This document shows, in pieces, positions 25,455 to 63,511 of a stretch of DNA of 64,000 nt. The stretch's first letter is position 1. Every line of letters begins with the position of its first letter. A program made the position numbers and the translations under genes. The notes below the pieces were generated by a model that was not told the DNA's origin, made no database searches, and saw only the letters and a program-made list of their open reading frames with translations. Source of the stretch: Eukaryota sp. GEM-RC1. Its lineage: Eukaryota. The stretch lies in NCBI GenBank assembly GCA_040285855.1, contig JAUFOQ010000017.1, positions 1,674,001 to 1,738,000 of the forward strand, written 5' to 3'.

Positions 25455-25706
25455 GTTCAAGAAATTTATGAAATATTGTGGATTTTATTGTATTTCAACT
25501 ACAGGTTACTTTCAGAAAAATATTTTACATCAATGATTAGAATCTTTTGGTAAATAAGTACAGTAGACTAGAGGTTGTTGTTCTCAGAATTGTTTGAATG
25601 ATCCCAATGATCTCGCTAGATGAATGAATAAGATTTACGATGGGTCATCTTAATCATCTTAATTCAAACTTTGACTTAGTGACAACGTCTTTGTATATGG
25701 TAGCTA

Positions 25707-39563: not shown

Positions 39564-42057
39564 TCAATTGATAGTACAATGATCCGGCACTGTAAATTTA
39601 GGATCATTTGCAGAAATAACTGAATGACTTGTGAGATACGAACATTCGATCTCCCCACTAGCTGAATTATCCAAGCAATATTCTAGAACAAAACCATCAT
39701 CAGATATGCAGTTGGTGATGTCATTTTCGTCATCATTTCTATAAGTATACCGTTTACATGAAACTCCTCCAATGACATCATCATCCACAAACTGGAAGTC
39801 TACAACTGGAACTCTCAAGTAGACAACAAAACTAAAAAGATCAAAAGCTGAATCTATAATGCAGATTGTCGGGTAATACTGGATTACTGCGCGGTCTTTC
39901 ACTAGTTCTTGTCTTTCGCCAACTTGTGTCCACATAAGAGATGAATCGAGGTTGAAACGAACATCAGTATAAGTTTCTCCTTCCCTTTCCAAAGTAGCAG
40001 CAAAGTAAAGTTCTTGATGGACAGGCTCAGGAATCCCGCAGTGTTCTGGTGGGGTAAATGCAGGATCATCAGCAGAAATTTCTTGATGATTGATAAACTG
40101 GACACACTCATATTCTTCCCAACATTGTTCGAAAAGGAATCCATCGTGGATGCACAGATCAACAGTGAAGTCTTCTAAATAGTCAGTCCTGAAGATTGTA
40201 CAAGTCTGACCTAGAACTTCCTTAGTTTCGTGGGTGTTTGTTGTGAAGACGGTGATCTTCATAAGTTGTATATCTAACAACCATTCGTCATCAAAGTCAT
40301 CAATATCACAGTGTTCAGAATCAAATACATAAGTATGATCTTCTAAATAAATAACGGAACTACTACCAGTATCCATAGCCATTTTAGGGTTCAAGATATC
40401 AACATGACTGCTGGATATTGGATCTTCATCAACATAGAAGTTAGCACTGAATGCAGTCTTTTGGATTGAAGAACAGTGGTGTTCAAGAGTGAATCTAGCA
40501 TCACTGGAAGAAAGTTCTTCGTGATCAGAAAATATTTGGCAGTTTTCAGTCAAATCCAGTCCACCATCACAGGCAATGGCAATGAAACCATCGTACAAGC
40601 AAACGTAGAGGTCTTCAGCAGGATCAACACTGTAGAGGTCACACTTACTATCTTGGTAATCAAGTTGACCAACTTTTTCATGAACATCAGGATCAACCTT
40701 CATTTTGTTAACAGACTCAAAGCCAATTTCTTCAAGGATCTCTGGGTCTTCAGGGGCACATACATCATTGACAATGTAAAAATTTGATCCATCGGAGACG
40801 AACGCCATTCTAAAGGAGGAATCATCTTCAGTAATTTCAACATCGAGCATCCAAACATTAGAGTCAAAATTGGCAATTATGGTCATAGTAGAAGACCCAT
40901 CGTCATCATCTTCTGTAGCAGTCATTTTGAAAGAAGTCTTCTGGAATGAAGGAGGCTCAGGAATCTCACAGTCTTCTGGTGGGGTAAACACAGGATCATC
41001 AGTAGAAACTTCTTGATGATTGGTAAACTGAATACACTCATCGGGCATACATAGTTCAATAATGAACCCATCATGGATGCACAGATCAACAGCAAGCAAC
41101 GAAAAATTAGACCTGAAGATTGTGCAAGTCTGACCTAGAACTTCCTTGGTTTCGTGGGTGTTGATTGTCAAAAAGTGAATCTTCATATGTTGGAGGTTTG
41201 ATATTAATTCTTCGTTAGTATCTCCAATACTACAGTGTTCAGAGTCAAATTGATAAGTATGATCTTGCGTTAAGAGAACATGGTTGTCTTCTAAATACAT
41301 TGCCATTTTAGGGTTCATAATATCAACGTGACTGGCCGAGATAAGTTCTTCCGCAACATAGTAATCGGCACTGAATGCAGTCTTTTGGATTGAAGAACAG
41401 TGGTGTTCTAGAGTGAATCTAGCATCACTGGAAGGAAGTTCTTCGTGATCGGTAAATATTTGGCAGTTTTCAGTCAGATTCAATCCACCATCACAGGCAA
41501 AGGCAATGAAGCCATTATACAAGCAAACGTAGAGGTGTTTAGCAGGATCAACATTGTAGAGGTCGCACTTACTACCTTGGTAATCCAGTTGGTCAACTTT
41601 CTCATGAACATCAGGGTTTACCTTCATTTTGCTTACAGACTCAAAGCCAATTTCTTCAAGGAACTCTGGATCTTCAGGGGCACATACATCATTGACAATG
41701 TAGAGAATTGATCCATCGAAGAATAATCCTCCTTGATGGACACTGAGCAGCCAAACACTCTCCGAAAAAAAAAGATCCGCAACTATGGTCATAGTAGAAG
41801 AACCATCGTCATTTTCCTCCACGGACTTCATCTTGAAAGACATTTTCTGGAAAACATCTCCTTCTCTATCATCATCTTTTCTCCTTAGGACGTTGACTAA
41901 CAACTATTACAATCAAGACCAGTAGAACTGCAATAGTTAAAGCAATCGCCCCAGCAACGATAAGTTTGATCTTCTTTGGTTTGTGGTATTCAGGACGAGC
42001 ATCAGGAAGGGGATAGCTGATCCCTGAATGCATTGGATTGGCGACGAATGTAGACAT
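39564..42057 (-). CDS. Paralogous type II membrane protein with five Cys-containing repeats
   Basis: MSTFVANPMHSGISYP...TM at 42057 joins ORF 39564..41903 via an A-run shift near 41880. Long near-identical blocks shared with 35648-37612 and an internal ~300-aa duplication. Confidence 0.75.
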
Positions 42058-42249
42058 GATGAAATCGTGAAGGCAAGTACAATAGATGAGTTTGAGTGCA
42101 AAAATCATAGTGTTATTCAAATGACTTCGTTTGACTGACAGCTGTGTCCAACACCATTTACAAAGTCTATTGCTTTAGAACTCCCGTTTCTGTCTCCTTG
42201 ACTCAGGAATTGAACATTTGTATTCATCAAGTTTTTGTTAAATTGTACT

Positions 42250-42366: not shown

Positions 42367-45260
42367 TCAAGATTCCTGATCTTTCTGGTTTACGTTTACG
42401 TGTGAGTCCTTGGGTACATATTTCTTAGGCTTATTTGGACAAGTTGCTCTGTTATGCCCAGGTTGAAAACATATACCACACTTGTTAGGACCTCTGACTT
42501 TTGTTAGAGGACACTTTGCCTTACCCTTACCCTTACTCACAGTCTTTTTCTTAGGAATCTGATCTGTATTCCCGCCATCCACGACAGGTGTTGTTTGAGA
42601 TTTTGGTCTCTCGAGGATGGCAGGTCTACCTTGACCTTGAATTGTTCCATTTACAATAATGTAAATATTGATAGCAGAATTGAAATCTCTATTCCAGAGG
42701 ACATGACATTTAGCACATTCAACTAAGCCCCATGGTGAGACTTTGTTGTTCTTCAATCTTTCTTTCGAAAATGTCAACTGGTCTGTCCATTCTTCATCAA
42801 AGTTACGCTCCACAATATTGTCTAATTGATTGTGTTCAATAATTTCCTTTTTTAATTCTTTTCTCTTCCTTCTGTAACTTCTTCTTCCAATTAGGATCAG
42901 TGACTTTGATCCTTTCAGGATTGGAACAGATACCTTCGTCATTTCTGGAAACACATGCAGAGCAACATTTGCTGGTCTTAAATTCATCAACTAGGAACAC
43001 TTTAAATCCAAATTTTCTCAATAATTTCCGAATTGAAGCACCTTTTACAGTCGATGCTTTACGTCTTCTTCGACGAAAAGCAGTGTCGTTCCAGTCTCCA
43101 TACCCAACAACGACTTCATCTGGGTTTCCAAACTGGAGAGTAAATCTGTGAAGCATGTTTTTCTCACTTCGTTCCTTTCTTGAATACTGTGTTAAGCGTC
43201 TACGTCTAAACCACTTTTCTTCGTAAATTCCTTCAGTATTTCTTTGATCAGTAGTGGGTGATCGTAATAAAGAACAGGTAATTTCTTTACCAAGAACAAA
43301 AGCAGAATACTGAGTCAATTCACAAGATTTACTACCTGGCGAGTTAGAGCCCCATTGATCTAAAATTTGTTGCCCATTTATGTCAATGCGTCTGCCATCT
43401 GGAATGTGAATAAATTGGGTAGAGTATTGTTGTAACCGTTCAGATTCAGATAAACGGTGGAGATTATATCGTCTTATTTTCTTCTCCAGCTTCCTCTTCT
43501 TTCTCTTAGCTCTTTTTCTTTCCTTCCTTGTTTTTTTCTTTTCCATGGAGACTTTTTAATATCGGCATTGCGCTCCCCAGCAGTGTATCTGAATACTTTC
43601 CAATCATCACGATTTTTCAACTTGACAGTTGATGGTTTGTCAATAGTAGGTGCGTCTTTCCAATCCTTCAATTCCTTTTTTAATTTTTTCAAGCTTCCTT
43701 TTTTCTTTGATGATTTTGGAGAAATCTTTCTTCTTCTGATTTTGGCTGATGTATCGAAACCTTCGATTTCCTTTTCCTCCTTAGATTTTAAAGAAGCACA
43801 ATACATCAAATCATGCTGATTAGGATCAATAGCAACAATTCTTTTGGATTTCAAATTTAAGTTTTGAATTTCTGTGGAACTCAAAGAATCAATGTACCTT
43901 TCAGTAGCTGTGTAGTCAACTGCTTTCACCTTCTTATGAGGATTTCCTCTCCCATCAAGCAGATCTTTCCGCATCATCATTAAATTACAGCTAACTCCAT
44001 CTGTAGAAATAGAACTGTTTTTGAAGTCATGAGACAATGACTTTGGAAGACACTTTGGTTTCAAAACTGAGTGCCAAATATCTTTTCGAACGTCATCAAA
44101 GCTACCTTTCATTTCTGATGCATAAACTTCTTTAAACCATGTAGTATCCAATCTGATATGATTAGGAATCAGTGATTTTGTTAGAGGAAAAGGATTATTG
44201 GCAGTAACACCAGGACAAGAGTCCTCAACAAGACGTTTCAAATACACTGCATGACTTAAGAATTTCAAAGGATCTACTTTTTCAGCATAATAGATTGTTT
44301 TCTCCATTTTACCTTCAAAAAAAGTAAACAAATAGTTAAAAAATAGTAAACTCAGTCTAGAATTGGGATCAGGAAACACTTCAACATCTTGAAAATTAAT
44401 TTTTGAAATTTCCCCATTAATGATCAACTGTCTGACTTCATTAAGCTTTGTACACAACTCTTGTCGTAGATTCTTATCAGTAAGCTTGTTAAGTCTATCT
44501 TTTTCAGGGTAACCAAATTAAATACTTGAAAAACATATTCATGAAAGTGATCACTCATGTTAGTCTTGTAATTCGTTATAATTTCAGTAGCCATGTAATG
44601 CAATATACGAGATAAACGATGACTACTGGGAAACACAATCCTATCAAGTCCAACAGATCGAGCAGCTATTTCTAAACGAGGAATATAATACATCAAGAAG
44701 TGTTGAGCAAACTGATTTTGAGTTGAGCCATCATTTGTGTTAGAAATTATGTTTTCTAAAGATTCTTGCACAGTCTCAATATGATTCTGATTGTTTACAA
44801 GTTTGTTGTCCCTAATCGTCATCATAGACAACACTTGTTCCATTGATTTCAACGTAAAAAAATTCTTCCAGTCTGGCAATTCAATTTTGGCAGTTTGAAT
44901 TTTAGTCCAAAGGTCAGGTTCAGGTTTAGGTTCATCACTCGCATCTTCAATATTTTCTAATTTAATAGGAGGAGTAGCAGCATGGATAGACTCTGAATGT
45001 ACATCTGTTTCTTCATCAGTTGACTCATCTGTATCAGAATTCATTTCTTCCTTAACAGTTACATTTGGAACAGTAGCAGGCAGTAACTTCTGAATGTAAC
45101 CTATAATACCTGAATGGTGAAAATTATGAACAAAAAATGTTTCAAAAAGAGAGTACTACGGACTCTTACTTGGTGAGCTCTCTTAACACGAGATTCAATA
45201 AATTTAACCTTCGCTTTGGACACAACATTGTCTAGTCGTTTCTTAACCACTTTCATTGGT
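42367..45260 (-). CDS. Fz1: Large Fanzor1 nuclease region of the polyprotein
   Basis: KVVKKRLDNVV..RVKRAHQV..STLFLK N-terminus, PNHIRLDT, ISTDGVSC, RuvC-I IVAIDPNQHDL, FRYT, FGNP..VVGYGDW, RuvC-II LVDEFKTSKCCSAC, CAKC..RuvC-III WNRDFNSAINI, GRP; then CGICFQPGHNRATC. Confidence 0.9.
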
Positions 45261-48200
45261 GACTTTGAACGTAATGTTTGTTTTTTGGGATCCAATAGGT
45301 CAGCCAACAAGTACTCAATCAGAGGTAATTGTTGAATTGAGTTCATCAACAATAGCGGTCTTGTCGATTCCTTGGCCCAAAGTTCATTTACTTTCTCCAA
45401 ATTTCTTACAAATTTCTTTTTAATCTTATCGACCTTCACTTTGGGATTGTCTGGAACTAAAACATTAATACTGTCAATTATGCCATGCAAGTTTTGGACA
45501 TTATTGACCAATTGAACTTCATCAGGATCAGAGTCATGATTAAGTTCTTCCAAGCGTTTGACAGTTTCATTTTTAGAAAAATTATTCATTTCAAGAAAAA
45601 TTTGAACAACATTTTCCAAAAAACGGCCACCAGTAAAGACATAAAAATTCTTCAGTACAGCATTCAAATCGAGACTAAAAAACGGACCAAAAGTTGTTTC
45701 CTTACACCATTTGTTGAACCAAAAGGGAATGTAGGGTTTAAATTCTGGAAAAGTAAACGTTGTATTGATTTTGAGGACTTGACAACGTGATACAAGAAAG
45801 GGAAATGTATCTAAGTGAAAGTCATAACTCACAAACAATCGTGGACAATGTTGAGTAATGAAGGAAATGAAGTTTTTAAGCATACTGGATTCACTATCTG
45901 AAATATGTAAGGTACACAAATCCAAGTTTGTAGTATCAAAGTTGCCATGAGAAAATAAATGTTTTTCATTAAACTCATTGTGATCAATGATCTCGATGGA
46001 AATTGATACAATAGGATCAACAGAAGAATCACGTTTAACTTCTAATTGATCTTCAGCTTCACCTTCAACAGTTTCAATGTCATCATCATCTTCTTGAACA
46101 AGTTGAACATTTCTGCCATTAATTCTTTCTTTTTGGCAAAATCACTTTGAACATGAATTAAACAAAAAGTTGGTAGATTGTTCCAAAGTAGAGGGGATTT
46201 AAGAAAGTCTTGAATTTGTATTTCTTCTTCTATAGGCTCAGTGTGTAGATTTACTTCCATTTTTTGGATTTCTTCTTGAATTGGCGATGGATACGACATA
46301 ATGGAGGCCTTAATTTTGGGTGGTAGTTCAGATGGTGGTACTTCAGATGATTCCAATGTGGACATACGGCGGTGAGTCTTTCGTATTGGAGTGTCACCAG
46401 TTGAAACAAGGGAGCTGGTAGTTCTAAATTTATTTCGTTGAATTAAAGGTGAACCTCGTGGTGATGGAATATCAGAAATTTTGGCCTTTCTTTTTTTAGT
46501 GCTTAAACCAGTAGATGCTTTAGTGCTAGCAAGACGCTTACCTGAGATTGGTGACGCAGAAACACGCGACAACTCAACAGGACTAAAAGTTTCAAAATGT
46601 TCCAAAATTTTACTTCGAGACTCGTGAACAGCAATAGTGGTATTACCCAGCAGTTCTTTAACATCAGTCCACCTTATGACCACAGATTGATCTAAATTCA
46701 TTAAAAGATCAATGTATTCGAGAACACAAAAACCAGAGTCAGTTAGAGTATGTTTGATATTTGATGGAATAAATTCTATATTTCTGGTTTCACACATTGA
46801 CAACACTGAATAAATTTTTGACACAATTGTAAATAAATTGGAGGAAGATGGTGCAACTGGCATTTGGTTAGCAGGAAATTCTCTGGCATAATCATCCTCA
46901 ACGTAGGTCGGATCAATGAATAAAATATGACTTGTAGGAGATGAAATGATCAGAATAATTAAACCCCAATGACGACCATCAGCAGTAAGATCACACATTG
47001 CACTATTGACAGGAACAAGTAGCATTTGTTGGTTGTTTTGACCACATTGGAAGAATTTCTGCGTCAAAAAATCTGAAAATGGATATTTATTATAGGGTTG
47101 GTCACCATATAATAACGGATATAAATCAGTTGGCCCAATTACATAGTCATAAAAGATTAAACCTGTTGATTCCACAAGTATTTTGGAATATTTGATGAAC
47201 AATTGATCGTCAACATAAGTAAACAATTTTTGAATCTGTTTACGGAGATCTGCAGCATTAAGTTCAATGTTAACTTGGATTAAAGCACGTTCAATAGAGA
47301 TCAAAGATAGATTGATGCCATCCCTTGAAATGAGTTCAACAAATTTTTGAATATAACCAATAACATAAATACCACAGTCATTAGGAGTCTGTGTCTTGGT
47401 GATGTTGACCCTCTGTACGTTCAATGTTACTTTCCTACATAATTCATCTACAACAGAACTTAGATAAGAAGAACCGACAATTGGATCCACAAATATCGCG
47501 TTGTTTTCCGCACAGTCTATTACCATTAGACCCCAATGAACTCCTCCAGATCCACCTGTTGTATTCATAGCATCGTTGAGAGGAACAGCGAAGTATCTGG
47601 TGCTTCTCTCCCGGGCGTCATCAATCTTATTTTGGCAGTATCCATCAGTTAAAAAATCTGACCACATCTCATCTGGAGCAATGAAATAGCATTCCCAATC
47701 AAGGTTTGCTTCTTTGAATTGGTGTTTTGAGTATTCAGAAAGGGCGTAATCATCTATCCATTGGCCAGGATTCAGATACTCTAGGGAGTCTTTGGACAAC
47801 GGTCCGGGATTGGATTCCACGTCACCATCCATGGTGAGATCTTCTTTGAATGGGGGACGGGAGGAGAAAACTGTACAAGAGAGGTCTAAAACACTTCGCG
47901 AGGAAGAACCACACACGGCATAGCTCTTGTTTTTAAGTATGTGTGTGTAGTTCATTGGAGGGGAATTGACACGGAGGGGAGAAACTGTACCATCAGCGAG
48001 AGAAGAACCACACACGGCATAGCTCTTGTTTTTAAGTATGTGTGTGTAGTTCATTGGAGGGGAATTGACACGGAGGTGAGAAACTGTACCATCAGCGAGA
48101 GAAGAACCACACACGGCATAGCTCTTGTTTTTAAGTATGTGTGTGTAGTTCATTGGAGGGGAATTGACACGGAGGTGAGAAACTGTACCATCAGCGAGAG

Positions 48201-48450
48201 AAGAACCACACACGGCATAGCTCTTGTTTTTAAGTATGTGTGTGTAGTTCATTGGAGGGGAATTGACACGGAGGGGAGAAACTGTACCATCAGCGAGAGA
48301 AGAACCACACAGGGCATAGCTCTTGTTTTTAAGTATGTGTGTGTAGTTCATTGGAGGGGAATTGACACGGAGGTGAGAAACTGTACCATCAGCGAGAGAA
48401 GAACCACACACGGCATAGCTCTTGTTTTTAAGTATGTGTGTGTAGTTCAT
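42367..48450 (-). CDS. Polyprotein (~2000 aa, reconstructed): repeat leader, 2A, Ulp1/SENP8-like protease x2, linker, Fanzor1, CCHC zinc knuckle
   Basis: Six ORFs chain through homopolymer shifts near 46130, 45135, 44500, 43550 and 42850. Bridging frames are stop-free (KERINGRNVQLVQEDDDD...; FVHNFHHSGIIG...; KDRLNKLTDKNLRQELCTK). Confidence 0.8.
46690..47797 (-). other. Tandem Ulp1/SENP8-like (C48) cysteine-protease domains
   Basis: Domain 1: LNPGQWIDD, VPLND..GGVHWGLMV, FVDP, QTPNDCGIYV. Domain 2: VPVN..GRHWGLII, FIDP, TDSGFCV. Confidence 0.85.
47800..47844 (-). other. 2A ribosomal-skipping (StopGo) peptide EDLTMDGDVESNPG/P
   Basis: Exact D(V/I)ExNPGP consensus, in frame, immediately before the protease domain. 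Confidence 0.9.
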
Positions 48451-48474
48451 TGGAGGGGAATTGACACGGAGGGG
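47903..48474. repeat. 99-bp tandem repeat, ~5.8 copies, coding (33-aa unit)
   Basis: MNYTHILKNKSYAVCGSSLADGTVS(H/P)LRVNSPP repeated with only single-base variants. Confidence 0.95.
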
Positions 48475-48895
48475 GAGAGCGAGAGGACCTCATCCCGCTA
48501 AACATGTATGCGAGAGTAATGATGAAGAGTATCTGTAAACTGATCTGGACTACAGTTGACTTTTTGCGACATCTTCAATTTGACAATACACCTGACATAC
48601 ATTCAATTTATTTTAACGACATGTGATGAACGAATAATTCTAATGACATCATGTATACACAAACATAGTACTGTACTGTATGGATTGAAACAAACCAACA
48701 TTGATGTCAATTTACTAACCTACAGTATGTTAAAAGTTATAAAGACTGCATGTAAGATTTATCTAAGTACTGTGAGTAGTGATAACAATAGATGTACATA
48801 TAAATAAGATCAAGTAAGTCACTGTCTGAGGTGTAGAATTAACCATAAAAACTAAGAACGAAAAAATTTATAAAGAACGAAAAAATGAATAAAGA

Positions 48896-51800
48896 CTATT
48901 CCCTCATTTTGTATTCCACATCTGTAAGATTTTGCCTCAAAAACGCGTGGAAAGTATTCCACTTTTTGCTTCGGGGTTGGTCGTTATCCATGATAACAAA
49001 CAGTGCGTTTTCAGTTCTTTGTTGAATAAAAGGAAATGTTGATGGCGTATCTGGAAGATCAATAATAATTGATATCTGACACCTAAATTCGGAAAATTTT
49101 TCCAAAATTCCCCAATTAGCAAACAATACCGAGTTTGGTTTCGTGTTGAACTGGTTCATTGTGAAATTATAAGCACTTTGAGTGACAGGTTTGGTTTTGC
49201 TACTGGCAAATTGGAGGGCATTAATGGTACCGTTCTTGGTTTCTTCACTAAACAAACTGCGATACGTCAGTACATCTTGTCTAGATTTAAACAATACAGC
49301 AATTTTTTCATGGGGTAACTTCCTTGTTTGGAGGATACCATGTAATAACCTTTTCAAAATTGAACTGATATCCGCAAATTTGCAATGAACAAGGTTGAAC
49401 TTTTTTCCTTTCAGTCGAATAGGAGGTCCTTCAGCTGGTGATAGTTTGTTTGGGTGGGATGATTTATCCAAACTTCTACAATATGATTGGAAATCAATTT
49501 GTTCCAAAGTTGTATCACCACCTGAACGACACAAAGTCATCACTTCTCCTGACACATCAACAATTCCAATTGTCATTGAAGTATGAGAAAAAATAGTTGA
49601 CATGGCTCTTGTATGCCCGTAGATAAACAAAATGAGATTTCTTTTTGTTTTGCACTTATACCTATACACGTTCCATCATTAGTGATACACAAAAATAATT
49701 CAAATGCTTCAATGAAAATACAGTCTACCAGACTAATTTTCTCACTTGTAGGGTAAAAATCATAGACAGATTCAAGACAGTGTATGACATTGCTTTCCCC
49801 ATCAGTTCTTATGAGATCTACGGATGACTCGCTTAAAACCAAAACAAAACCTTCTTTGTAAGCATGAAGTTTGGTGAAGAGCTTTCTTGGTCTATCTTTT
49901 GGTTCACGTTGCAAGTCAGCATGAAATTGAATATCTGTCACACTGACGGTGTAATCAGTAATGTAAATGAAACTGTCACATAAGGTTACAATATCCTTTA
50001 ATCCTGTTGTTTGACTAGTTAAAGTCCGCCTGACTCCAGACATTTCAAGTTCGTATATAAACTTTTCCGTCATTACCAAGCATCCCCTAAAATAGTGACC
50101 AGGCAAAAATATTGCAACAATTCTTTCATCAAGTTGGTGTTGCGTATATTTTCCATTTTCGGTACCATTTTCTACGCTGTCTTCATAAGATGACTCATTG
50201 TATAAAGGTAGATTAAGGAGTTTAATCATTGACTCTTTAACATAAATAACAAATAATCCATCAGACGAAACGTCAAATGGACTATCACTATTGATTTTGT
50301 TCAAAATTGAACTGGATTTGTGATCTGTAAGATCAAGAATCATAAGATAGTATGAGCCATTGAGAAGACAACGAGCAACAATTTGAGTTGTCGCCGGTAT
50401 AATTACACACTGTTGAACGACAAGTTGTACAAAGGTAAATTTACCAGCTATGTTAGGTACAGGTCTTTGAAAACAAATTTTTGAGCCTTCCATGACGCAA
50501 TAGGTTCTGTACTATACAAAGCAGTAGAAGAAGTAGTAAAAGCAGTAGTAGAAGTAGTAGTAGGAGCAAGAGTAGTAGAAGCAGTAGGAGCAAGAGTAGT
50601 AGAAGCAGTAGAAATAGTGGAAGCAGTAGAAATAGTAGGAGGAACTGTATCTTGCCAATACAATGTAATAATAGATCCTTTTCCAGTAACAAAATAAATT
50701 TCTGGCTTTTTGAGAGAAGGAAAAATTTTGATAATACCTGCATCCCAGTTTCGTTTAAAACGATCATTAAAAAAAGACAGGAGCGGCTCGATTATCAGTA
50801 TTAAAGAAACCAATACGATTCTTTCTAGTCACAAAAATGATGACTTTGGGATGACCATATATTCCACATGCATCAACAATACAATCATATGGCTTAGGTC
50901 CTTCCAACCACCCCTGTGGTCTTAACAGAAAATCTACTTTGATTTGAGATTTTGAAACCGTCACAATATGTAACGTTAACCATTTAGTTTTAACGGTTTC
51001 ATCTAACCGAAATGGTACACTACCAGCAGCATCATAGTCGGATGCGTCCACATCAATAATTGTTCCAGTAGGTTTCATGGGGGACGATTTAATGGCCTGA
51101 ATCTGATAGAACAAACGAGTAGGATCCATTTGTAATCTTTCACACAAATAAACACCTAATCTACATCGATTCAGGCAACCAATCATTGATACTAAAGGTT
51201 TCAGAACAGAATCATCGTATTCATAGCATATTTCCGACTTATGCGCAATATCAAATGATACCATTTGTGTGGTAATACATCCGTAGCTGAACACACGAAC
51301 ATACATCAATTGTAAAAATAAGTTGGACAAAGTACGTTCAAAATAACAGCACAAAGTTGGAAGTGCCTGTTGCGGAGTCACATATACACCTGACCATTGA
51401 TCACATTTATCGACAGGTAATCGAGTGAAAAGAGAGTTGTAGAATTTGAGATCAATACGACCACTATGACCGTTCAGAGTACTGTACTTAATAGGACTTT
51501 GATAGTAGTAATTTGAGGCTCTTAAACGCACATTAACGGAGAATGTTTTTTCTTTACATAGTAGACCAAAATTTAACAAATCTGCAACATTTACACCGGC
51601 ACTGTTACTGGAGTACCATTGATTAGTTTTGAAGAATACTGAGGGATAGGGGTGTATATTCAATTTGGGGAAAAACGGATGGGGTAATTTAGATGATGAA
51701 GAATTTTCAATCATTTTGGCCAAAATAAGTGAAATAACTCTGTTATTTTTACAATTACTCGCTGTAAGTTCGATTTCCTTGTCGGATTCAACAGAAAGTT

Positions 51801-54800
51801 CTAATTTAACAGCATTTGTGTCCCGCTGTCGCTGTTTTGAAGACTCCAATAAACTATTCAATTTTGTTATCTTTGCGTTTAATTCATCAACAGAAACACT
51901 TTCAAATAACGTCTTTTCAAATGGTTCAACAGGCAGCTGAGTTGAAGATCCTTGTAATGCCATGTCTTGTTGCATACTTCGAAACATTATTGAATTTTTC
52001 GGGTAAGACGACGCAAACAACAAAGTCAATTGTGAAAAATCGAAATTAGATGGAACAAGTGTTTGATAAAAAGATTGATCCTTAAAATCACTCCATTCTT
52101 TTTGATTTAGATCCTGTTTCCTCTCTTTTTCATGTTTATGTCCTGTATGGGCCATTTTGTACCCTTGTAATAAAGATTGGACCTGTTTGGCTTTAGCTTC
52201 TAACGAATCAAAGGTTTTGGACAATCGATTCAATTTGGATTGGAAGGTTTCACCCATACTTGATACACTACGCTTAATAACACTCAATTTGGACAGCAAT
52301 CTATCGCACCAAAACTTCAACTTCCTAAGGTCAAAATATTGTAAAATCTTCCAATTGATTGTACCGGATAACAAGGCACATAAAAATTTGAACATCATAT
52401 TCAGGTCTGAAAATCCGTGATCCGTTCCATCATCATACAAATTTAGAAAATTTCCTAGTTTTTCAACTTGGTTGATGTATTCTGTGTTGAACTTGAAGTT
52501 AAACAAATTGAAATTGAATGAACATAAAAGAATTAATCCGGCAACAACTTGATCTTGAACAAAACAATTGAATACAAAATGAAAATGTTCATGAGAATCA
52601 GCAAGAAGTGATCCCAAAAGTCCCATAGACGTCAGTTTGTCATTGATAAAACGACTCTCAAGGATATTATTCAGGTAGAGGGAGTAAACTGTTTCGTTTA
52701 CTGAAAAATCAGAAACGATAGTAGGCATGGCATTCAGAAAATCATTTGGATGAGATGAAATTTGTTTAACTTTCAAAATACAATCTTCCAATGGTGAATC
52801 TAGAATTTGTGGATCTTTTGTCGGAGACCTTGAGTACTGACCAATAAAATTAAAGTCAAATAATCTAATACAGATCCCAGGTCTTGTCCGTCCGACTCTT
52901 CCAGCACGTTGAGTAGCAGAGCATTGTGAAATGTGTGCCATAACCAATTCTTTTCTGAAATTTGGAACTCTTTCTAACCCAGTATCCAAAACAATTACTG
53001 CCGAGTCGATCGTGATTGATGACTCTGCGATGTTAGTTGCAGCAACAATCTTGAATTCATTGTTTTTACACTTGCTTGCTGCCTTGAGTTGATCCTCTCT
53101 GCTGATCTCAGAATACAAAGGATAACAACAGTTCATAGGCAAATCATTATTGTGATAACATGCTTTAACCAGACTTTCTACTTCAAAAGAACCAGGTAAA
53201 AAAACAATTAATGTTATACCTGGAACATCTGACTGTCTTGTATGAAGTTTTGTTAGTACAAAGTATTTGACAACAATTTTGTAAATAACAATTATCAATT
53301 GCAGGAGTGCGTCTGAGTTAATAATCGACGGGTGAAGTCTCTGATCTACTTTAGATTCAAAGTGTTTTTTATAATTTACCACTTCTGCACGAAAATCATG
53401 TTGATGATCACAGACAGCTTCTCGAAATCGAGGGGGAAATCCTTCAGTAAGTTTTGAATACCAGTCATTAGTTTCGAAATTCTTAAAGTCGAAAACGTTC
53501 AGGACTCTTGAGAATTGACCAGTGTCAAACATAAGGTTTTGTTGTTCTTTAAGTAAATCAGTCTCTGTCCATTGATTATCAGGGAGCAAAGTGTTTAAAA
53601 ACTGGGTTAAGTTCAGCAGTTGTTGATCCAATAGTTGCGGATGACAAACCACGTATAATGCCCGAGTTTTTTAAATTAATTTTCATTACTGTGAGTAACA
53701 GATCGACATCTATAGTTCTGTCATGAACTTCATCCACAATGACGACTTTGTAAGTAGAAACAAATGAATGCTGATTCATCAACAACATGAGAGTTAAACC
53801 AGTTGTTTGATAATGAACCAAAGTATTGTCTGAAAAATTGTATACCCCACCACCACAGTGATATCCAGCAATGGGGTAATCGTAAATAAATTTACTACCC
53901 AGTCGAGGTCTAGTTAAGGAGTTAAGAAATTCAGACAAAAAGATTGCCGAAGGTACCGTTGGTTGGGAAACAATGACTTTGCTAAAAAAAGTAAGCGCAA
54001 AAATAACAGGTGACAGTGTAGATTTTCCTGATCCAGTTGAACCAGTGATCATATAGGGTAAATCATAACTCCGATCAGAATTACAATAACACTTGATTAA
54101 ATGCTTTAATAGTTCAGTAAAACTATTCCTTCCAGTAGAAGTCGAGACAAAGGACAATTTATGATCTCGTTGAGCATGAAATAGAACATTCATCAAACTA
54201 GACAATGCGAAATGGTCTACATTGTGTCTACTAGCATATTGTTTCCAGTGAGTGATGATAATTGGAGTAATTTGAGTAATAAGGTCGCATTTTAAATCCA
54301 TCAGCTCAGTCATAAGATCATCGAAATTAGTATCATGACGGTTTACCTCAATTGGTTCAATAGCATCAACAGCATGAACATCAAGGAGAATTTCGGTAAG
54401 ATCTTCGGGTGTTTCTTCAACATCTTGTAATAAATCAATAACTTTGGCTTTCTCTGTCTTATATTTCAAAGCATCTTTAATTGCTTGTTCAACAACTTCT
54501 TCATGTGTTGTTCCATTGAATATATAGCTAATGAAAACAAATGGGAAGTTCATTAGATTTACAAAGGGTTCAAAACAATTTTCAAATTCTGAAGTGGAAA
54601 TAATGTAACTTTGATAACCTAGCATAAATACCAACAAATAAATTGAAGAAATTTGTTGATTTCGGTAATTCTCTTGATCAGTTTCATTTGAAAATAAATA
54701 TGTCTTGGCAAAGACATAAAAGCGATAGAGTGATCGAAAAATCCAGGTATCTTGTAACTTTGCATCAACATTGAGTAATCGGGAAGCATAGTTTTCAATT

Positions 54801-56158
54801 CTTACAGACATATCAATAGATGTATTATTAAAATCCTGTACTTGTTCATATTCATCAGCTTCGTCAGTTGTTTGTTCTGAAAGAACAGCTTGGCCATCGG
54901 CAGCTTCAGCATATTCTACAATTTCATTGAGTAGTTTTTCCAAGTAATTTTTGTTAAAATGTTTTGGTGGGGTCAGATCTCGCAGCCAAGTTTTTACTTC
55001 TCTTGCTGAATCAACTGTGAATGGGGAAAGAGAATCTGGCGTTGGAAAGGTATCTTTAAAAAATTTAGATCTTTGCAAATACTGATGACACAGTGTTAGT
55101 GCTATCGTCAACATTGTTGTTAACGAAAGACAACAGGCAGGATTTACAACGCGAATGAATTTCGAGAAATCAAGAGTATGAGCGGTTAAACAGCATTGGA
55201 CGGGCCTGGTCGAATCATGCTGTTGTGGAAGTATACCAGGCTGTCGGGGGAGCATACATTGATTACAAATGGCGTAACTTGAACATTGTTTATCAATTGT
55301 CAAACGTTTTTGTGCAGAAAATTGTAGAAGTTGTTGCGATGGTAAAACTTTCAGGGACGGCAAGTCAATGGAGGTGAAAACTTCATTATGATATTCTAGA
55401 AACTCAACAAAAACATGATCGACTTCTGGGGCAATCAGAGATTCAAAGAAGGATGTAATGTAATCATAAATATTTTTAACAGAAAGTCTTTTCATTGGTA
55501 GATCAAAATGAGCAAGAGCATTGTCTAGTTGAGACTTACATTCAGTAAAAGAAATGGGATCACGATCAGTCATTGCTTCTGGAACAGACTGTGAAGCATT
55601 CAGGTGATAGTGTTCCAAGCAAGTACATATACGATGTCCTGTAATGTTCTTCACAGGATGGATTACAGACTCATGTGAAATAAATGCACAGCCTGAGTGA
55701 GCGGAGGGTGGAAATGGACCGGGATTTGACTCTACATCACCGTCCATTGTGAGATTTCTTAACCAACTATGGGATGGAGAGGCATTAGATTCAGTAACAC
55801 GTACAAAACAACAATAGTTCAAGGCATGACTCTTCTTTACGAGCATGTTATCCCTATATGTTGTATTGGGGGAAGGGGGCGTAGAAAGAGAGGACTTCGC
55901 TTCAACAACGGGAGGAGAACAACAACAACAATAGTTCAAGGCATGACTCTTCTTTACGAGCATGTTATCCCTATATGTTGTATTGGGGGAAGGGGGCGTA
56001 GAAAGAGAGGACTTCGCTTCAACAACGGGAGGAGAACAACAACAACAATAGTTCAAGGCATGACTCTTCTTTACGAGCATGTTATCCCTATATGTTGTAT
56101 TGGGGGAAGAGAATGGCATTTTGAAACGATGGGGAAGATATATCCGGAGCAATTTCAT
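48896..56158 (-). CDS. Polyprotein (~2400 aa, reconstructed): repeat leader, 2A, unknown region, DEAH-box RNA helicase, T/S/A linker, beta-rich region, degenerate helicase-C-like domain
   Basis: GSTGSGKST, SQPT, TTG, DEVHDR, SSAT, VFLPG, ATNIAESSITID, QRAGRVGR. Five ORFs chain through shifts near 53590, 50770, 50480 and 49590. First ATG at ~56119. Confidence 0.8.
50520..50645 (-). repeat. Low-complexity Thr/Ser/Ala coding repeat
   Basis: TISTASTISTASTTLAPTASTTLAPTTTSTTAFTTSSTA. Confidence 0.8.
55715..55765 (-). other. 2A ribosomal-skipping peptide WLRNLTMDGDVESNPG/P
   Basis: Exact consensus, in frame, ~15 codons after the repeat leader. Confidence 0.9.
55808..56109. repeat. 117-bp tandem repeat, ~2.6 copies, coding (39-aa unit)
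   Basis: acaatagttc recurs at 55811, 55928 and 56045. Unit SPNTTYRDNMLVKKSHALNYCCCCSPPVVEAKSSLSTPP. Confidence 0.95.
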
Positions 56159-56845: not shown

Positions 56846-57415
56846 CTAAGTCATTGCTTGAGTTACTTGATTCTTCTTTTCATTCAATAAGTTTTCTTCT
56901 CTAACTGCCTTTGGAGATTTAGACTTTTTCATCTTAGAAAGTCTTGCAGAACATGAAACTTTTTGATGTTGTTCATGTTCTGCAAGATCAGACAAGTCTA
57001 TTGCTGAGTCACTTTGATCTTGAATCAAAATATTATATAAATTTTGAGAGGACAAGGAAGTAGTGGTACCATTCTTTTCTTCAAGAATATGAGTTTCTTT
57101 GTTAATAAAGAATTCAATGTTTTCCTTAAGATTATCACCAACAACATTTTTAAACCATGTTGTATTGTTGGTGGACACTGCGATATGAGAAGTACTATCA
57201 GCAGCTCGGGTGATTAAGATATAATCTCCATTAATTCCGAGATTGCAAGGTGAAGTTGAAGGAGTTGATTTTGTCTCAGTAAAAGAAAAGACATTGTATA
57301 CATCTTGGTGTTTAGATGCATACTTCCTCTGATAAGCAGAAAGACGACGTTTCCGAGACAGAACGTTTGTTGATGAGTTCATGCAAATTTTGCCGGGAAA
57401 CAAATTCTCCTTCAT
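56846..57415 (-). CDS. Hypothetical protein (strand uncertain)
   Basis: 189-aa ORF with no motif. A frameshifted plus-strand reading from 56504 is an alternative. Confidence 0.25.
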   Translation of the reverse strand: MKENLFPGKICMNSSTNVLSRKRRLSAYQRKYASKHQDVYNVFSFTETKSTPSTSPCNLGINGDYILITRAADSTSHIAVSTNNTTWFKNVVGDNLKENIEFFINKETHILEEKNGTTTSLSSQNLYNILIQDQSDSAIDLSDLAEHEQHQKVSCSARLSKMKKSKSPKAVREENLLNEKKNQVTQAMT

Positions 57416-58205
57416 CGGAATCTCAATGTCTTTGAACGAATCTTCTCTTGAAGTGATGTCAAGTCTGTTAGTACAATATCACGAACACTGCAACAGAAGT
57501 TTGATAACCTTATGCAATTGTTGTCATTGTACTTCGTTAGGAGATGATTCTGTGACCACATCTATATCAACTTCCTTAAAAGATCTTGTGTCAACTCTGT
57601 TCTACCCTTCATCAGAAACTTCTAATGTTGAGGAAGTCTTAATCAGAGTATCTCATCTTTGGCAGTTCACGCCTCTACTCAACAGTTTTCTCAACTGGAC
57701 AGGTTTAATTGATATTCTTCTTCATTGTTGTCTCAATGATGATACTTGTTTATTTTTGAAACATTTACATTTGCTGATCAATAGTTTTGCTTGTTTAGTT
57801 GGTATATTATTTTGTCACAGTTCTCGATCTTCTACAACTTTATTAATTCCTGTACTCCTCCAAAGTTCACTTCATGATGATGGTCATTTAAGATTTGTTT
57901 ATTTTAAAAAGATTGAGGATAAATTGTTGCTGTTACTTGAGGACAATGATTATTGTTTGTCTGTTTCAAAGTTTGTTTTGATTTTTGTTAACATTGTTTT
58001 AGCAAAAGGTAATTGTAATGATTATACTGAAGTTGTCAATTTGTTTAGTTTTATTTTAGAACGAAGTGATTTTGTTGACTTGAAACATGTTTTGACTTGG
58101 AAAATGTCAGGAAATGATGAGATTGATGTGGAGAATTTATGTGATGAGTTGTTGCAGTTTAATGATAGTGTAGTGAAGTATGTTTGTAAGTATCTGTGTA
58201 ACTAA
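57381..58205 (+). CDS. Hypothetical Leu/Cys-rich helical protein
   Basis: 274-aa ORF, stop followed by AATAAA and a minisatellite. Confidence 0.5.
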   Translation: MQILPGNKFSFIGISMSLNESSLEVMSSLLVQYHEHCNRSLITLCNCCHCTSLGDDSVTTSISTSLKDLVSTLFYPSSETSNVEEVLIRVSHLWQFTPLLNSFLNWTGLIDILLHCCLNDDTCLFLKHLHLLINSFACLVGILFCHSSRSSTTLLIPVLLQSSLHDDGHLRFVYFKKIEDKLLLLLEDNDYCLSVSKFVLIFVNIVLAKGNCNDYTEVVNLFSFILERSDFVDLKHVLTWKMSGNDEIDVENLCDELLQFNDSVVKYVCKYLCN

Positions 58206-58207
58206 AT

Positions 58208-58460
58208 AAATCTTGTAAAACACATGTTGTATTACAAATGTTGTGTTACAGATCTTGTGTTACACATCTTGTAAAACACATCTTGTATTACACATCTTGT
58301 GTTACAAATGTTGTAAAACACATCTTGTGTTACACATCTTGTGTTACAAATGTTGTATTACACATCTTGTGTTACAAATGTTGTGTTACAAATGTTGCAT
58401 TACAGATCTTGTAAAACACATCTTGTGTTACAGATCTTGTGAAACACATCCAGTCTTGTA
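58208..58460. repeat. 14-bp minisatellite
   Basis: Variants of cacatcttgtgtta / caaatgttgtatta / cacatcttgtaaaa. Confidence 0.9.
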
Positions 58461-59250
58461 TCTACATCCACATTTTCTTCATCCAAACTCATATCCACAA
58501 CGAAGCCACACTCTGTTACTTCTCGTTCTTTAAGAGTTATGTGACTCCCCAAACTGAAGGCTAGTGACATTTGCTGAAGACATACACCCGATACACATGT
58601 TAAATGCCATATTGTTACCCCTTGGTCTTTGATTCTCCTTCTTGTATAATAAACAGCTAGTGTCTCGTTTGCGTATCGTCGTTGCATATCTTTTATATGA
58701 CAACATCAAGACATGACAATTCTAATCCCAGTCAAACAGACTTACGCGTACTCTTTATTGTTTGGTCAATCCACTGCTTTACACTTCTCGCCAAACTTAT
58801 CGGAAACACATTCACTCTTTTCCTCTTTTAACATTTTGTGTTGATTCTATTGGAAGACGGTGCTAGATGTATTAGTTAGTCGCTGAGTAATGTCGCTGAG
58901 TAATATCATAATAGTTGGAAAGTAAGATTTGATCTATAAACAAGAAGACATAGATGTTAAAACGAAGTTTACTATTACAAAAAGAAGTCAGAGATGATAC
59001 ATATAAACATACAAACACACATCCTCCATCACTACTACTGGTGTGATATAGAAAATTCTTGCATATGAATCGTATGGAAGGACAAATGTTCACAGAATCA
59101 ATATAAAAGGACTTGAAGTCGTGAACTGCGGAAATGTGAGATTGTAATACCCCGACTGAAATACAGTCCCTGGATAAAGTCATAGTTTGAAGTGAAAGAG
59201 AAATTTGATGAAGACCAAGTTTCCCTGCGCTCAAACAATCCATCAACTCA

Positions 59251-61745
59251 ATGGCACCAACCTCTTTACACAACATCAATCTCACAGATGACCAACGTGA
59301 GATCTTTAACGCAATCACTACCAGCAGACACAACTTCTTTGTCACTGGTGGTGCAGGATCAGGAAAATCTTATCTTTTACATGCTCTCAAATACTGGTGG
59401 AATAACGCAGGATCTCGTCTCATGCGTGCTAATGGTGAAATCTTCTTCACTGCAACAACTGGGGTTGCCTCAACTGTTTTTGGTGGACAGACCATACACT
59501 CACTGTTTGGTTATAAGTTTATGAAAGAAGAAGAATCCATACATGATGTTATCAAATGTATGCCATCAAATGTCAAAATTTTGTTAAAAAATATTACTCC
59601 AAAAAATACAATGTTAATCATTGATGAAATTTCAATGTTATCCTCCAATTTGTTTCAACGGGCGAGTGACATTTTGGGCGAACTTATGCACACGCAAAAA
59701 TGTCACTCTCCGAAGAAACCATTTGGAGGAATTCAGATAATTTTTTTGGGGACTTTCTTCAATTAGCCCCTGTTGTGAAAAGTCTTGATGGAAAAGGAAA
59801 TCGAAAAGTGGTAATTTCTGATTTCGCTTTTTCATCAAGTGCTTGGAACAATTTAAATTTTAAATATTTTGAACTGACTGGTAGTATTCGACAGCAATCA
59901 GATTCCCAATTTTTTAATTTTCTAAATCAATTAAGATTGGGTCTGTTAGATAATTTTATGAAATCAATTCTGTGTACTCATTTCGAAACAGCAGAATCTG
60001 TTGAAAACCCAACAATTTTATACGGAAAGAATACTGATGTTGCTAGAGAAAATTTAAAACAATTCAAAATTCTGGCAAAATTCAGATTCCATTGAATTTG
60101 TAGCTGTTGACAAATTCAATGAATCTGAATTAAAATCTCAAATTAGAAAAAGAAGTTCTAGATTTCCAGTCAATGAATCTAATTTGGAAAAATATTATGA
60201 CATTGAAACTTCTGTGCTGACAAGTCGCTTGGATGACTTTGCTGAAAAAAAACTAGACTGTGTTGTGGGTGGACAAGTGATGTACACTCAAAACAAGCCT
60301 GAACTTGGATTAGTTAATGGTTCAAAAGGAGTTATTGTTAATTTTTCAGATACATATATTGATGTTCGGTTCAACGCTGAAGCAGAACCGAAAAGAATCA
60401 GTCAGTCAAGGTTTGCTATCGAACACTTGAATGAAATCGGAAGACCTGTTCAAGTGGCGAAAAGAATTCAGTTTCCGCTAAGACCTTGCTGGGCGATAAC
60501 AGTGCATCGATCCCAAGGTTTAACAATTGACGGGATTGAAGTTGCTATCCAGTTTTGGGAATATGCCCAACTTTATGTGACCTTAAGTAGGGTTAGGTCT
60601 TGGAGGAGTTTAAAGATTTTAAGTATTGGAAGAAGTTATCCGGTACCAAATTTGGAATTGTACCTATGGTATTATTCAACTTTTCATCCTGTTAAACCAT
60701 CCACTATTGATTTGTATGTTTTGGGAAATCAACATTGTCTTCAACGAGATTTCAATCATTTTAATTCATTGTTTGCAAACTTTTGTGCAGAATCGAGTGA
60801 ACCAATTATGGATGATGTTGTTGTTCCTGAAATTGTTCATGGTGTTGATGAAATTGTTGATGAAGTTATTGTTGATAATGTTGATGAACAAATTATTGAA
60901 AATAATGATCATCAAATTGTTGACTTGGAAAAAATCATTTAAACCATTTCGAAAAATCAAATTTATTTGAAACAGAAGCACTACTATCAGGATCCGATTC
61001 TGGTGATGAATCTGATAGTGATACAATTTCAACAAGTTTAGATGATTTTGTTGTAAATGATGAACTTGAAGAAGATGAAACTAATATTCCTCCCAAATTT
61101 ATTAATTGTGACTCAATTTTTAACAAAAATTCCCCAGAGATTGGTGTCAATAAGTCTAAACTTCCTCAGTTACCACGAGGCAACATTACTCTACCATCGC
61201 TTCCCCGTTTGAAGAAAACCCCTTTACCAACGAAGAATTTATTATTAAAAAAGAATGTCAGTGCTGGTATAGAAAGAAAAAGTTCCCAAGTATTTCCTCT
61301 TATTGATGATGAAAAGCGATTTTGTCTCAAGGAAGTTCAAACTGAAAGCTTTGAAAATGAAAAATGTGATTCCATATGTGAATATCAACAAACTGACAAT
61401 ATGACTTATGAAACAATATCATTGTCTCCTATTTTGGAGTATAATCGTGTTGCTACTTCAAAACAATTGAGAGTGGACTTAACTATTGGAATTCAGTCAA
61501 TTGTCGATAATGTACTAGATTGTATTGGATCTGAATATGCATCAAGTATGGAAGTGAAAACAATAAGAAACTGTTACATTACCGATGTGATTAATAGGGA
61601 TAATGTTGATGAACGTTATTGTAGTGATGTACTTGTGGAATTGTTTCATGTTTTGAAAGAGTATTTGAAAAATGATGAAAAGACTGGTATGTGTGTTTTA
61701 TTTGAATTATATTTAATTTTGAAAAAGATTGGAAAATATAGGTAA
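59251..61745 (+). CDS. PIF1: PIF1-family SF1B DNA helicase with acidic C-terminal extension, ~830 aa, reconstructed
   Basis: LTDDQ..F, TGGAGSGKS, TATTGVA, GQTIHS, IIDEISM, PFGGIQIIF-GDFLQLAPV, RQ, GLVNGSKG, QFPLRPCWAITVHRSQGLT, YVTLSRVRS. Shifts near 59745, 60080 and 60932. Confidence 0.9.
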
Positions 61746-61764
61746 TTTTGATAGTTTCATTTTG

Positions 61765-62345
61765 TGTTACACATCTTGTAAAACACATCTTGTATTACAA
61801 ATCTTGTATTACACATCTTGTGTTACACATCTTGTAAAACACATCTTGTATTACAAATCTTGTATTACAGATCTTGTGTTACACATCTTGTAAAACACAT
61901 CTTGTATTACACATCTTGTGTTACAGATCTTGTGTTACAAATGTTGTATTACAGATCTTGTGTTACACATCTTGTGTTACACATCTTGTAAAACACATCT
62001 TGTGTTACAGATCTTGTGTTTCAAATGTTGTATTACAGATCTTGTAAAACACATTTTGTGTTACAGAAAGCACTTGTAGTTTTGTAAATTCTAATATAAA
62101 ATAGTCAACAATTCAAAAGATCGAAGGTGTTCTTTTCAGTCAACTCTAGACATTAATAGTGAATATCTTTCTTGGCTGGGTTAACACATTGATTAGTGAA
62201 GACAGATAAGAGTCATGTCTAGGTCAACAATTCATTACACATACGACACTTTCATTACAAATGTTGTAGTTACAAATGTTGTATCACCAAATGTTGTAGT
62301 TACAAATGTTGTATCACCAAATGTTGTATCACCAAATGTTGTACA
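61765..62345. repeat. 14-bp minisatellite (same family as 58208-58460), two blocks
   Basis: 61765-62066 cacatcttgt(g/a)tta variants; 62255-62345 caaatgttgta variants. Confidence 0.9.
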
Positions 62346-62809: not shown

Positions 62810-63511
62810 TAGGGTTGTCAATGACTTGACTCAAGTCGTAAGTCGATTGACTTGAGTCAAGTCATTTCCAAGTCAAGTCATTTTTTCCGTTTGACTCAAG
62901 TCAAAGTCAAGTCGACTTGATATTTTCCAAGTCGAGTCATTTGACTTGACTTGTAAGTAATGTCGCTTTTTTTTTAGACGGCGGGCAACTGAAAATCAGT
63001 GTAAGATGCTCAAATACTGCAACTTTTTAAGTCATTAGTAAATAAACCAGACATCGTGAAGGTGATGATTCGTTCCATTCTTTAACCCTGTTAGAGGACT
63101 GGTTGGACAAGGGTTATGATATGTTAGAAGTCCGTAGTGATGACGAAGACGAAGACGTTGGTCAGCATATTGGTGAAGTTGTGGTCTAGTACTAAATCAT
63201 AATACTAAGTATCATTTATAGTTAGTGTCTGTTAGTTATTAACTTCTGCAAATGCATTTATTTCACTGACTGATTATAAACCCCGTTTTTTTTTCATTTA
63301 TACTTATTTATACTAATAAATTGATGTTAAACTATGATGAGCATTGGTTAATGATGCATTTCTATCACCCAAGTCATTATACAAGTCAAGTCATTTTGCT
63401 CAAGTCGACTTGGTACGATTTGACTTGACTTGATGAATGACTCAAGTCAAAGTCAAGTCGACTTGGGAATTTCAAAGTCAAGTCAATCGACTTGAGTCAT
63501 TGACAACCCTA
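62810..63511. mobile_element. hAT-like MITE
   Basis: 17-bp TIR tagggttgtcaatgact. 8-bp TSD gtatgcac at 62802-09 and 63512-19. Dense AAGTC/GACTT subterminal repeats. Contains a ~75-bp copy of the 20948-21022 retroelement tail. Confidence 0.9.

Follow-up and report, generated by a model that had tools for sequence, protein, structure and literature searches.

Virus-type 2A motifs between variable tandem-repeat leaders and unrelated payloads in probably mobile genes of the metamonad Skoliomonas

Introduction

StopGo (2A) peptides, at which the ribosome skips a Gly-Pro bond, have been described chiefly from viruses; the scattered examples in retrotransposons and cellular genes are of unclear purpose (PMC12846837, bioRxiv 2026.09.24.754024, PMC13405545). 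Two such peptides are described here from 64,000 nucleotides of Eukaryota sp. GEM-RC1 (assembly GCA_040285855.1, contig JAUFOQ010000017.1, forward-strand positions 1,674,001 to 1,738,000), a stretch that we call the window and number from its first letter. Each lies in a long minus-strand gene, after a leader built of tandem repeats and ahead of a multidomain payload, which is a helicase in gene A and a protease, an exonuclease-like domain and a Fanzor1-like nuclease in gene B. GEM-RC1 belongs to Skoliomonas, a free-living metamonad, and its assembly, from Nanopore plus Illumina data, is 48% repetitive (PMC11316075).

The nearest described relatives of the two peptides are viral. StopGo motif 4 ('class A/B chimera'), with the signature WV(R/K)DLTx[acidic]G, is given in chordate and arthropod viruses, and its tested example was ∼100% active in reticulocyte lysate (PMC12846837); two W(V/I)RDL...GDVESNPGP peptides showed 89-95% activity (Baral et al., bioRxiv 2026.09.24.754024). 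The Skoliomonas peptides have the identical 17-residue pattern, with the same free positions. They differ in being chromosomal protist sequences near an N-terminus, following a repeat leader, whereas the viral motif stands between proteins, and in carrying N at position 6 (p6) in 3 of the 14 distinct peptides of the family.

In position the two sites resemble the 2As of the non-long-terminal-repeat (non-LTR) retrotransposons L1Tc, Ingi, CR1, L2 and Rex1, being N-terminal in the long open reading frame (ORF) of a repeated element and directly ahead of its first catalytic domain. L1Tc also has a 5' self-cleaving ribozyme, and mouse L1 carries at its 5' end a variable number of head-to-tail promoter monomers, which are untranslated; the units described here, in contrast, are in frame with the ORF and lead into a 2A. 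The payloads are also different from those of the non-LTR elements (protease-Fanzor, helicase and phosphatase), the leader is a variable tandem array, and 121-200 residues precede the motif in the window, compared with 40-80 in non-LTR elements (PMC3708506, PMC3894237, PMC13405545). Some 2A-bearing non-LTR ORF2s do carry deubiquitinase domains as well (PMC13405545). Cellular 2As, such as the sea-urchin NLR signal 2A and those of ankyrin and RapGEF proteins, are likewise chromosomal, N-terminal and found in expanded gene families, but the highlighted ones are leucine-helix types, and no tandem-repeat leader appears in the parts of these papers covered (PMC4981915, PMC13405545). A literature search confined to papers open without subscription gave none that deals with 2A in DNA transposons, in Fanzor genes or in Skoliomonas. 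In the readable supplements of two studies, Rao et al. (PMC12338488) and Snell and Matreyek (PMC13405545, apart from the large Table S2), neither the family's names nor its peptides occur. The recoding motif described here is a known one; its architecture and setting appear to be new.

Results

Two motif 4 peptides in the window

The sites and the leaders before them are as follows.

55803..56109, minus strand: leader array A, 117-bp unit x2.6, each unit with a single in-frame ATG and a single predicted hairpin
55715..55765, minus strand: 2A site A, WLRNLTMDGDVESNPG/P, motif 4, N replacing the usual D at p6
47898..48474, minus strand: leader array B, 99-bp unit x5.8, each unit with a single in-frame ATG and a single predicted hairpin
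47800..47850, minus strand: 2A site B, FKEDLTMDGDVESNPG/P, motif 4

An initial annotation of this DNA had reported two LTMDGDVESNPGP peptides of identical sequence and divergent codons. Both are present, on the minus strand, and they are the only 2A cores in the window; no third was found among its NPG and ExNP matches. A degenerate core search gave 2 matches against 0 in 100 shuffles, and the chance expectation for D[VI]ExNPGP in six frames is 2.6e-5. The codons had been quoted correctly: between the 13-codon cores (site A 55753-55715, site B 47838-47800, minus strand) 8 codons differ, with 8 synonymous and 0 non-synonymous changes. Saturation predicts 8.2 differing codons under equal codon use or 7.3 under the window's own codon use, and the observed number, being that of saturation, implies that the sites are not recent copies of each other. 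As a comparison of two sequences, the pair points to constraint on the peptide, but by itself it does not separate descent from convergence.

Read over 17 residues, site A is WLRNLTMDGDVESNPGP and site B is FKEDLTMDGDVESNPGP, both of which extend to the full motif 4 pattern, [WF]xx[DN]LTxDGD[VI]ExNPGP. The core D(V/I)ExNPGP is preceded by G at both sites, the upstream hexamer DLTxDG reads DLTMDG in site B and NLTMDG, with one conservative deviation, in site A, and an aromatic residue stands in register at p3 (W in site A, F in site B). Both 2As are in frame in a long ORF and between separable parts, as is expected of motif 4. The annotation had also called the flanks unrelated, which is true downstream only. 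Upstream, the sites share the aromatic p3 and D/N at p6 (WLRN, FKED), and both are preceded by tandem arrays whose units are related as DNA, only 1 of 1000 dinucleotide shuffles scoring as well. The annotation made no mention of these leaders, of the payloads or of the wider family.

A likeness to insect picorna-like virus 2As had been proposed, and its viral part stands. The restriction to that group does not, since motif 4 occurs in chordate and arthropod viruses (PMC12846837) and also in a protein named Totiviridae coat protein. In the supplements of Rao et al. (PMC12338488), as far as readable, the same 13-mer occurs from a picornavirus entry only, and it is encoded by two virus-like contigs in which 7-9 codons differ from those of sites A and B; with the codons saturated, recent direct transfer from these contigs is not supported. 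A 5.5-kb toti-like viral contig (L002/L003 1-2967) carries, ∼60 residues from its start, KEDLTMDGDVESNPGP, which matches site B at 16 residues; here too the 2A codons are saturated relative to site B. In the set of 32 viral motif-4 17-mers, where p6-p8 and p10-p19 were largely fixed by the search pattern, p3 lay outside the pattern and was aromatic in 19.

Conservation across the family

Relatives were reached via two query proteins and form a sample, not a census. With gene B as query, a full HMMER search returned 41 matches, 23 of them with a 2A core, these being 19 leader-2A-protease proteins and 4 multi-2A virus-like polyproteins. Twenty of the 41 were looked up, and 17 of these are named Skoliomonas (15 GEM-RC1, 2 TZLM3-RCL); the motif is retained in a second isolate, TZLM3-RCL. 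A search with the 2A region only returned five GEM-RC1 proteins and nothing else. Altogether 52 named models were gathered, 20 of which begin downstream of the 2A site and 32 of which span it, and 29 of the 32 have the canonical core. The 28 core-bearing GEM-RC1 models lie on 12 contigs, and the relatives from the two isolates include near-identical as well as distant ones.

Among the 14 distinct 17-mers of the family, L7, G11, D12, E14, N16, P17, G18 and P19 are invariant and p3 is W or F in all 14, while p4, p5, p9, p13 and p15 vary, as they do in the 32 viral peptides. Seven protease lineages were compared, one for each clade (near-duplicate and truncated rows excluded); over their 21 pairs, identity is 76% in the 2A (65-94), 27% in the protease and 12% in the 25 residues upstream. 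Even the best 17-column window of the protease, at 52%, falls below the 2A. The purifying selection on the peptide that the annotation had read from two codon sets is therefore supported, and the family is stronger evidence for it than the pair: the variable positions of the 17-mers are mainly those that vary in viral motif 4, and the motif is conserved above the protease's catalytic window.

The same motif heads three unrelated payload types, protease-Fanzor, helicase and phosphatase. P0009, which is 35% identical to the gene A product, has its own 26-residue repeat, WCHDLTNDGDVEANPGP, followed by a domain in common with gene A and a histidine phosphatase. Leaders and payloads are mixed at the 2A, with one leader type found on up to three payload types and one payload found behind up to three leaders. 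On another contig an A-like gene, P0009 (GEMRC1_006047), and a B-like one, P0059 (GEMRC1_006041), stand six gene numbers apart, and further 2A genes likewise occur in close pairs by gene number.

The repeat leaders

On the coding strand, the units of both arrays are open in the 2A frame only. For both arrays to combine a triplet unit length with an open frame, the chance is ∼0.004 (1/9 x 0.17 x 0.23). As proteins the two units are not significantly alike (816 of 2000 shuffles as good). The number of leader A units changes among near-identical copies: the gene A cluster has three further members, all from Eukaryota sp. GEM-RC1, and units number 4 and 2 among them, against 3 here. Across the family the periods are 26, 27, 27, 31, 33, 38, 39 and 42 residues, many models show no repeat, and there are at least eight distinct unit peptides, mostly unalignable. 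Several family leaders have a hydrophobic stretch near their end, 3-10 residues ahead of the 2A (Kyte-Doolittle hydropathy, KD, 1.7-2.5), whereas leaders A and B do not (KD 0.9). No known RNA or ribozyme matched at the Rfam gathering score in the window, and around both leaders there was no ribozyme-type match to E 10, so that no counterpart of the L1Tc 5' ribozyme was found in either search. Sigma-70-like matches in array B proved to be one site repeated, near chance, and were set aside. A C/D-box-like stretch (AUGAUGA...CUGA) lies antisense just upstream of leader B (48514-48605, plus strand); it is far below Rfam thresholds and probably due to chance.

The payloads

The frames that make up the two genes are listed below.

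53579..56119, minus strand: gene A, first frame; after the leader and the 2A, a Cys/His-rich and helical domain and then the DEAH helicase RecA1 domain (GSGKST, DEVH, SAT)
50767..53670, minus strand: gene A, second frame; C-terminal half of the helicase (QRAGRVGR), HrpA/HrpB-like below curated cut-offs, plus unassigned domains
48896..50828, minus strand: three more overlapping frames, unassigned, a putative continuation of gene A
46042..48450, minus strand: gene B, first frame; leader, 2A, SENP8/NEDP1-like C48 protease directly after the skip site, second protease-like repeat, S/P-rich linker
45101..46141, minus strand: gene B, second frame; family-B polymerase exonuclease-like domain
42367..45155, minus strand: gene B, four more frames; Fanzor1-like nuclease (AIDPN, DEFKTS, NRDFNS, two CxxC) and C-terminal zinc knuckle

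In gene B, the 201 residues after site B are predicted to fold alone as a complete C48 protease (predicted local distance difference test, pLDDT, 87.7, from an alignment that included unnamed stand-alone SENP8-like proteins), with intact His and Cys motifs. The best structural match is the NEDD8 protease Den1 (E 2e-8), and P0064 alone likewise ranks SENP8 first (E 0.003). The second protease-like repeat has Ser at the catalytic Cys position. Further downstream, two colinear matches to Fanzor1 (Spizellomyces punctatus Fz1, PDB 8gkh; E 3e-8 and 4e-5) are accompanied by a RuvC triad and zinc-finger motifs, spread over three frames. The region 44424-45155 has no database match and is assigned to gene B by position only. 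A check for a guide (omega) RNA at the Fanzor 3' end, made on this sequence alone, gave a single folding window at z -4.6, within the end of the ORF, and none below -1.9 after the stop. The single model P0064 runs from leader through 2A, protease and exonuclease-like domain to the frame that precedes the Fanzor matches; a word-index search for longer relatives of gene B, a weak search, gave 0 of 5294 candidates. Compared with Fz1, the protein predicted here would have an N-terminal fusion to a 2A, a ubiquitin-like (Ubl) protease and an exonuclease-like domain. By keyword, no protease or 2A fusion of Fanzor appears in the parts covered of PMC3627910, 10.1101/2023.08.09.552727 and PMC10530073. 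A second, distant Fanzor/TnpB-like gene (23656-25484, minus strand, two frames), GC-richer than its surroundings, is without a 2A.

The unassigned Cys/His-rich and helical domain that follows site A, and that gene A shares with P0009, gave an unusable structure prediction (pLDDT 35), and an Atlas structure search gave no usable match for it, nor for one host protein. By exact look-up, 5 of 10 window proteins are present in the protein collection.

Discussion

Why should chromosomal genes of a protist carry a viral recoding motif behind repeat-built leaders? Motif 4 is a type that skips on the eukaryotic ribosomes tested so far, and ribosome skipping at sites A and B, predicted from their sequence, is very probable. 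ATEWLRDLTKDGDVESNPGP, which equals site A at 15 of 17 positions, falls in the class 'Skipping/Skipping and Falloff' (Snell and Matreyek, PMC13405545). Leader, 2A and payload follow each other in this order in a single open frame, with the 2A at a domain boundary; the motif is conserved across the family, while leaders change in copy number and are shuffled with payloads. The explanation that we favour, with some confidence, is that working StopGo sites release a variable, repeat-built leader, the payload starting at Pro, in dispersed genes of probably mobile, non-retro DNA. Translation would start at an ATG in the leader and the ribosome would read through the repeats; the Gly-Pro bond would be skipped, freeing the leader at Gly, and translation would resume to give a payload protein that begins cleanly with proline. 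The repeats themselves may act as nucleic acid, as a hairpin-forming cis-element of transcription or translation, which is the weakest step. The 2A would insulate the payload from whatever peptide the repeats encode, and leaders could therefore grow, shrink or be swapped. More tentatively, DNA-based mobile elements of Skoliomonas may express unrelated genes, including a giant protease-exonuclease-Fanzor1 protein, from a swappable cassette made of an expandable RNA-hairpin array and an insulating virus-type 2A.

Several observations weigh against this account. Its hairpin step depends on long predicted hairpins, one per unit. In their favour, they fold better on the coding strand (z -2.1 for A and -5.3 for B) than on the other (-0.4 and -1.6), but in windows picked after the fold had been seen; a whole A unit cut through the stem has a fold z of -0.3. 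The apical 25 bases are 18/25 identical between A and B with 7/7 pairs kept, but these are two sequences, with one compensatory and one one-sided change, and 238 of 500 shuffles do equally well. Back-translation of seven other leaders gave a shared hairpin in 1 of 14 comparisons (P0016 vs A, 0/60 shuffles); the stem test on such leaders had no power and missed its own positive controls. As to the motif, the core deviates in three of the 32 site-spanning named models (N16I in P0069 and P17L in P0071, both broken, and V13T in P0021) and also in the unnamed P0029, and N at p6, as in site A, occurs in 0 of the 32 viral 17-mers although the search pattern permitted it. In one screen of canonical class A peptides the inactive gate held ∼81% of cells, and peptides related to hosts or retroelements scored low (bioRxiv 2026.09.24.754024). 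As to mobility, no transposase, convincing terminal inverted repeats or target-site duplication was found in 41900-64000, though the ends may lie outside the window. Both genes are, moreover, broken in frame in the window, at nine points (four in A, five in B), two of which are read through in paralogs.

These frame breaks are likely to be sequence errors or copy-specific mutations. With single-base indels assumed, genes A and B would have ∼2400 and ∼2030 codons. Four paralog models read through the break between the first and second frames of gene B, while two break as in the window and two bridge it with a gap; the next break, between the second and third frames, is read through in two models and shared by four. 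Other copies are broken where the window is open, and host genes of the window are frame-broken too. Most breaks lie at homopolymers, although 45% of random 100-base coding windows also hold such a run. Programmed frameshifting is not favoured at the two breaks that paralogs read through. A +1 break in the gene A helicase (53579-53670, minus strand), which ends CCC TGA after a T5 run, is common to the near-identical copy P0005, whose end coincides with that of the first gene A frame; it may be a systematic error, a short intron or a programmed shift.

Two other roles for the 2A are compatible with leader release and are its main rivals. The site could serve as a brake, with ribosomes that skip and often fall off, or a lowered product yield, keeping nuclease, Ubl protease and helicase low, so that leader removal would be secondary. 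Braking has been proposed for L1Tc and other non-LTR elements (PMC3894237, PMC3708506), 59-70% of tested retrotransposon 2A-like peptides lowered protein abundance (PMC13405545), and payloads such as these, if abundant, could damage the host. The reduction is, however, linked in PMC13405545 to a poly-leucine helix that is absent from the motif 4 peptides here, and of the tested peptides the closest one was classed as skipping, albeit in a class that includes fall-off; a brake would also leave the repeat leaders unexplained, and we regard it as unlikely. Somewhat less likely again is that the leader matters as a product or a targeting signal, either as a small repeat protein, rich in Cys and Ser, that is made along with the payload, or as a hydrophobic signal giving dual localisation under partial skipping. 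That both arrays keep their frame, that leaders A, B and P0016 have the pattern [IM]LxxK[SG]xA[LV]-C in common, that several leaders end in a hydrophobic stretch and that a sea-urchin 2A-like signal sequence provides a precedent (PMC4981915) would fit this. The diversity of unit peptides, the lack of significant protein similarity between A and B, the D/E-poor, S/C-rich composition and the absence of a hydrophobic stretch from the window's own leaders do not.

It is improbable that the genes belong to a Polinton-like element or an integrated DNA virus with 2As serving its own genes, the copies being proviral and not transposon cargo. Ubl proteases, PIF1 and DEAH helicases, polB-exonuclease-like domains and Fanzor are each found in large DNA viruses, viral Ulp1-like folds do match the protease, and the giant genes are co-oriented. 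Cellular Den1 outscores those viral folds, though; the window has 0 matches to capsid, packaging ATPase, polymerase or integrase, the Fanzor and helicase pieces have no relatives in IMG/VR (by single-sequence search, which finds close relatives only), and all 47 viral motif-4 loci are on contigs <10 kb. Most improbable is a motif that does not skip at all, being a relic or having another role as a linker or cleavage site. Canonical cores can be inactive (PMC3708506, bioRxiv 2026.09.24.754024) and decayed copies are present in the family, but conservation above a catalytic window despite saturated synonymous sites, in the exact viral register and ahead of unrelated domains, is not what a relic would be expected to show.

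What kind of element carries these genes? No APE endonuclease or reverse transcriptase downstream of the 2A was matched by Pfam in 36 window frames or 25 relatives, and the locus therefore fails as a non-LTR retrotransposon. Dispersed near-identical copies and the Fanzor1 domain argue for mobility. We conclude that the 2A genes are probably mobile, non-retro DNA, and we place them in no transposon superfamily. With one motif on dozens of genes whose leaders are swapped, in a culturable protist lineage, the purpose of N-terminal chromosomal 2As becomes testable in a single family, where decayed natural variants can serve as controls in distinguishing leader removal, braking and targeting. The family also provides 14 natural variants of a motif class that is highly active, and it hints at a long Fanzor1 fusion that has not been described. 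If the favoured explanation is right, metamonad ribosomes skip. On the more tentative cassette reading, StopGo would occur naturally in a metamonad and in a non-retro DNA element, and the cassette would be a natural modular part for gene expression.

Other features of the window

Between gene A and the first of several 14/15-bp satellite arrays, two opposed ORFs (210 and 289 codons; 56846-58205) have no Pfam, NCBIfam or PHROGs match. The arrays are at the following positions.

58220-58450: 14/15-bp satellite array
61758-62065: 14/15-bp satellite array
62255-62343: 14/15-bp satellite array

These related arrays flank a PIF1 helicase in three frames and an acidic ORF (59212-61745, plus strand), and decayed copies of this last ORF lie at 2934-3111 and 4516-4805. 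An inverted paralog pair (35585-37612, plus strand; 39564-42174, minus strand) combines repeated Cys-containing domains with an N-terminal stretch predicted to lie in the membrane, and an in-frame TAG interrupts one copy, a frame break the other; we presume a likeness to ependymin-related proteins, for which there is no Pfam support. Two inverted decayed copies, ∼94% alike (51-1833 and 33249-34865), have no Pfam match, and we take them to resemble the 3' part of a restriction-like-endonuclease non-LTR retrotransposon. Finally, a 702-bp non-coding element at 62810-63511 has terminal inverted repeats that start with TAGGGTTGTC and is flanked by an 8-bp duplication, GTATGCAC, features by which it is presumably a hAT-type miniature inverted-repeat transposable element.

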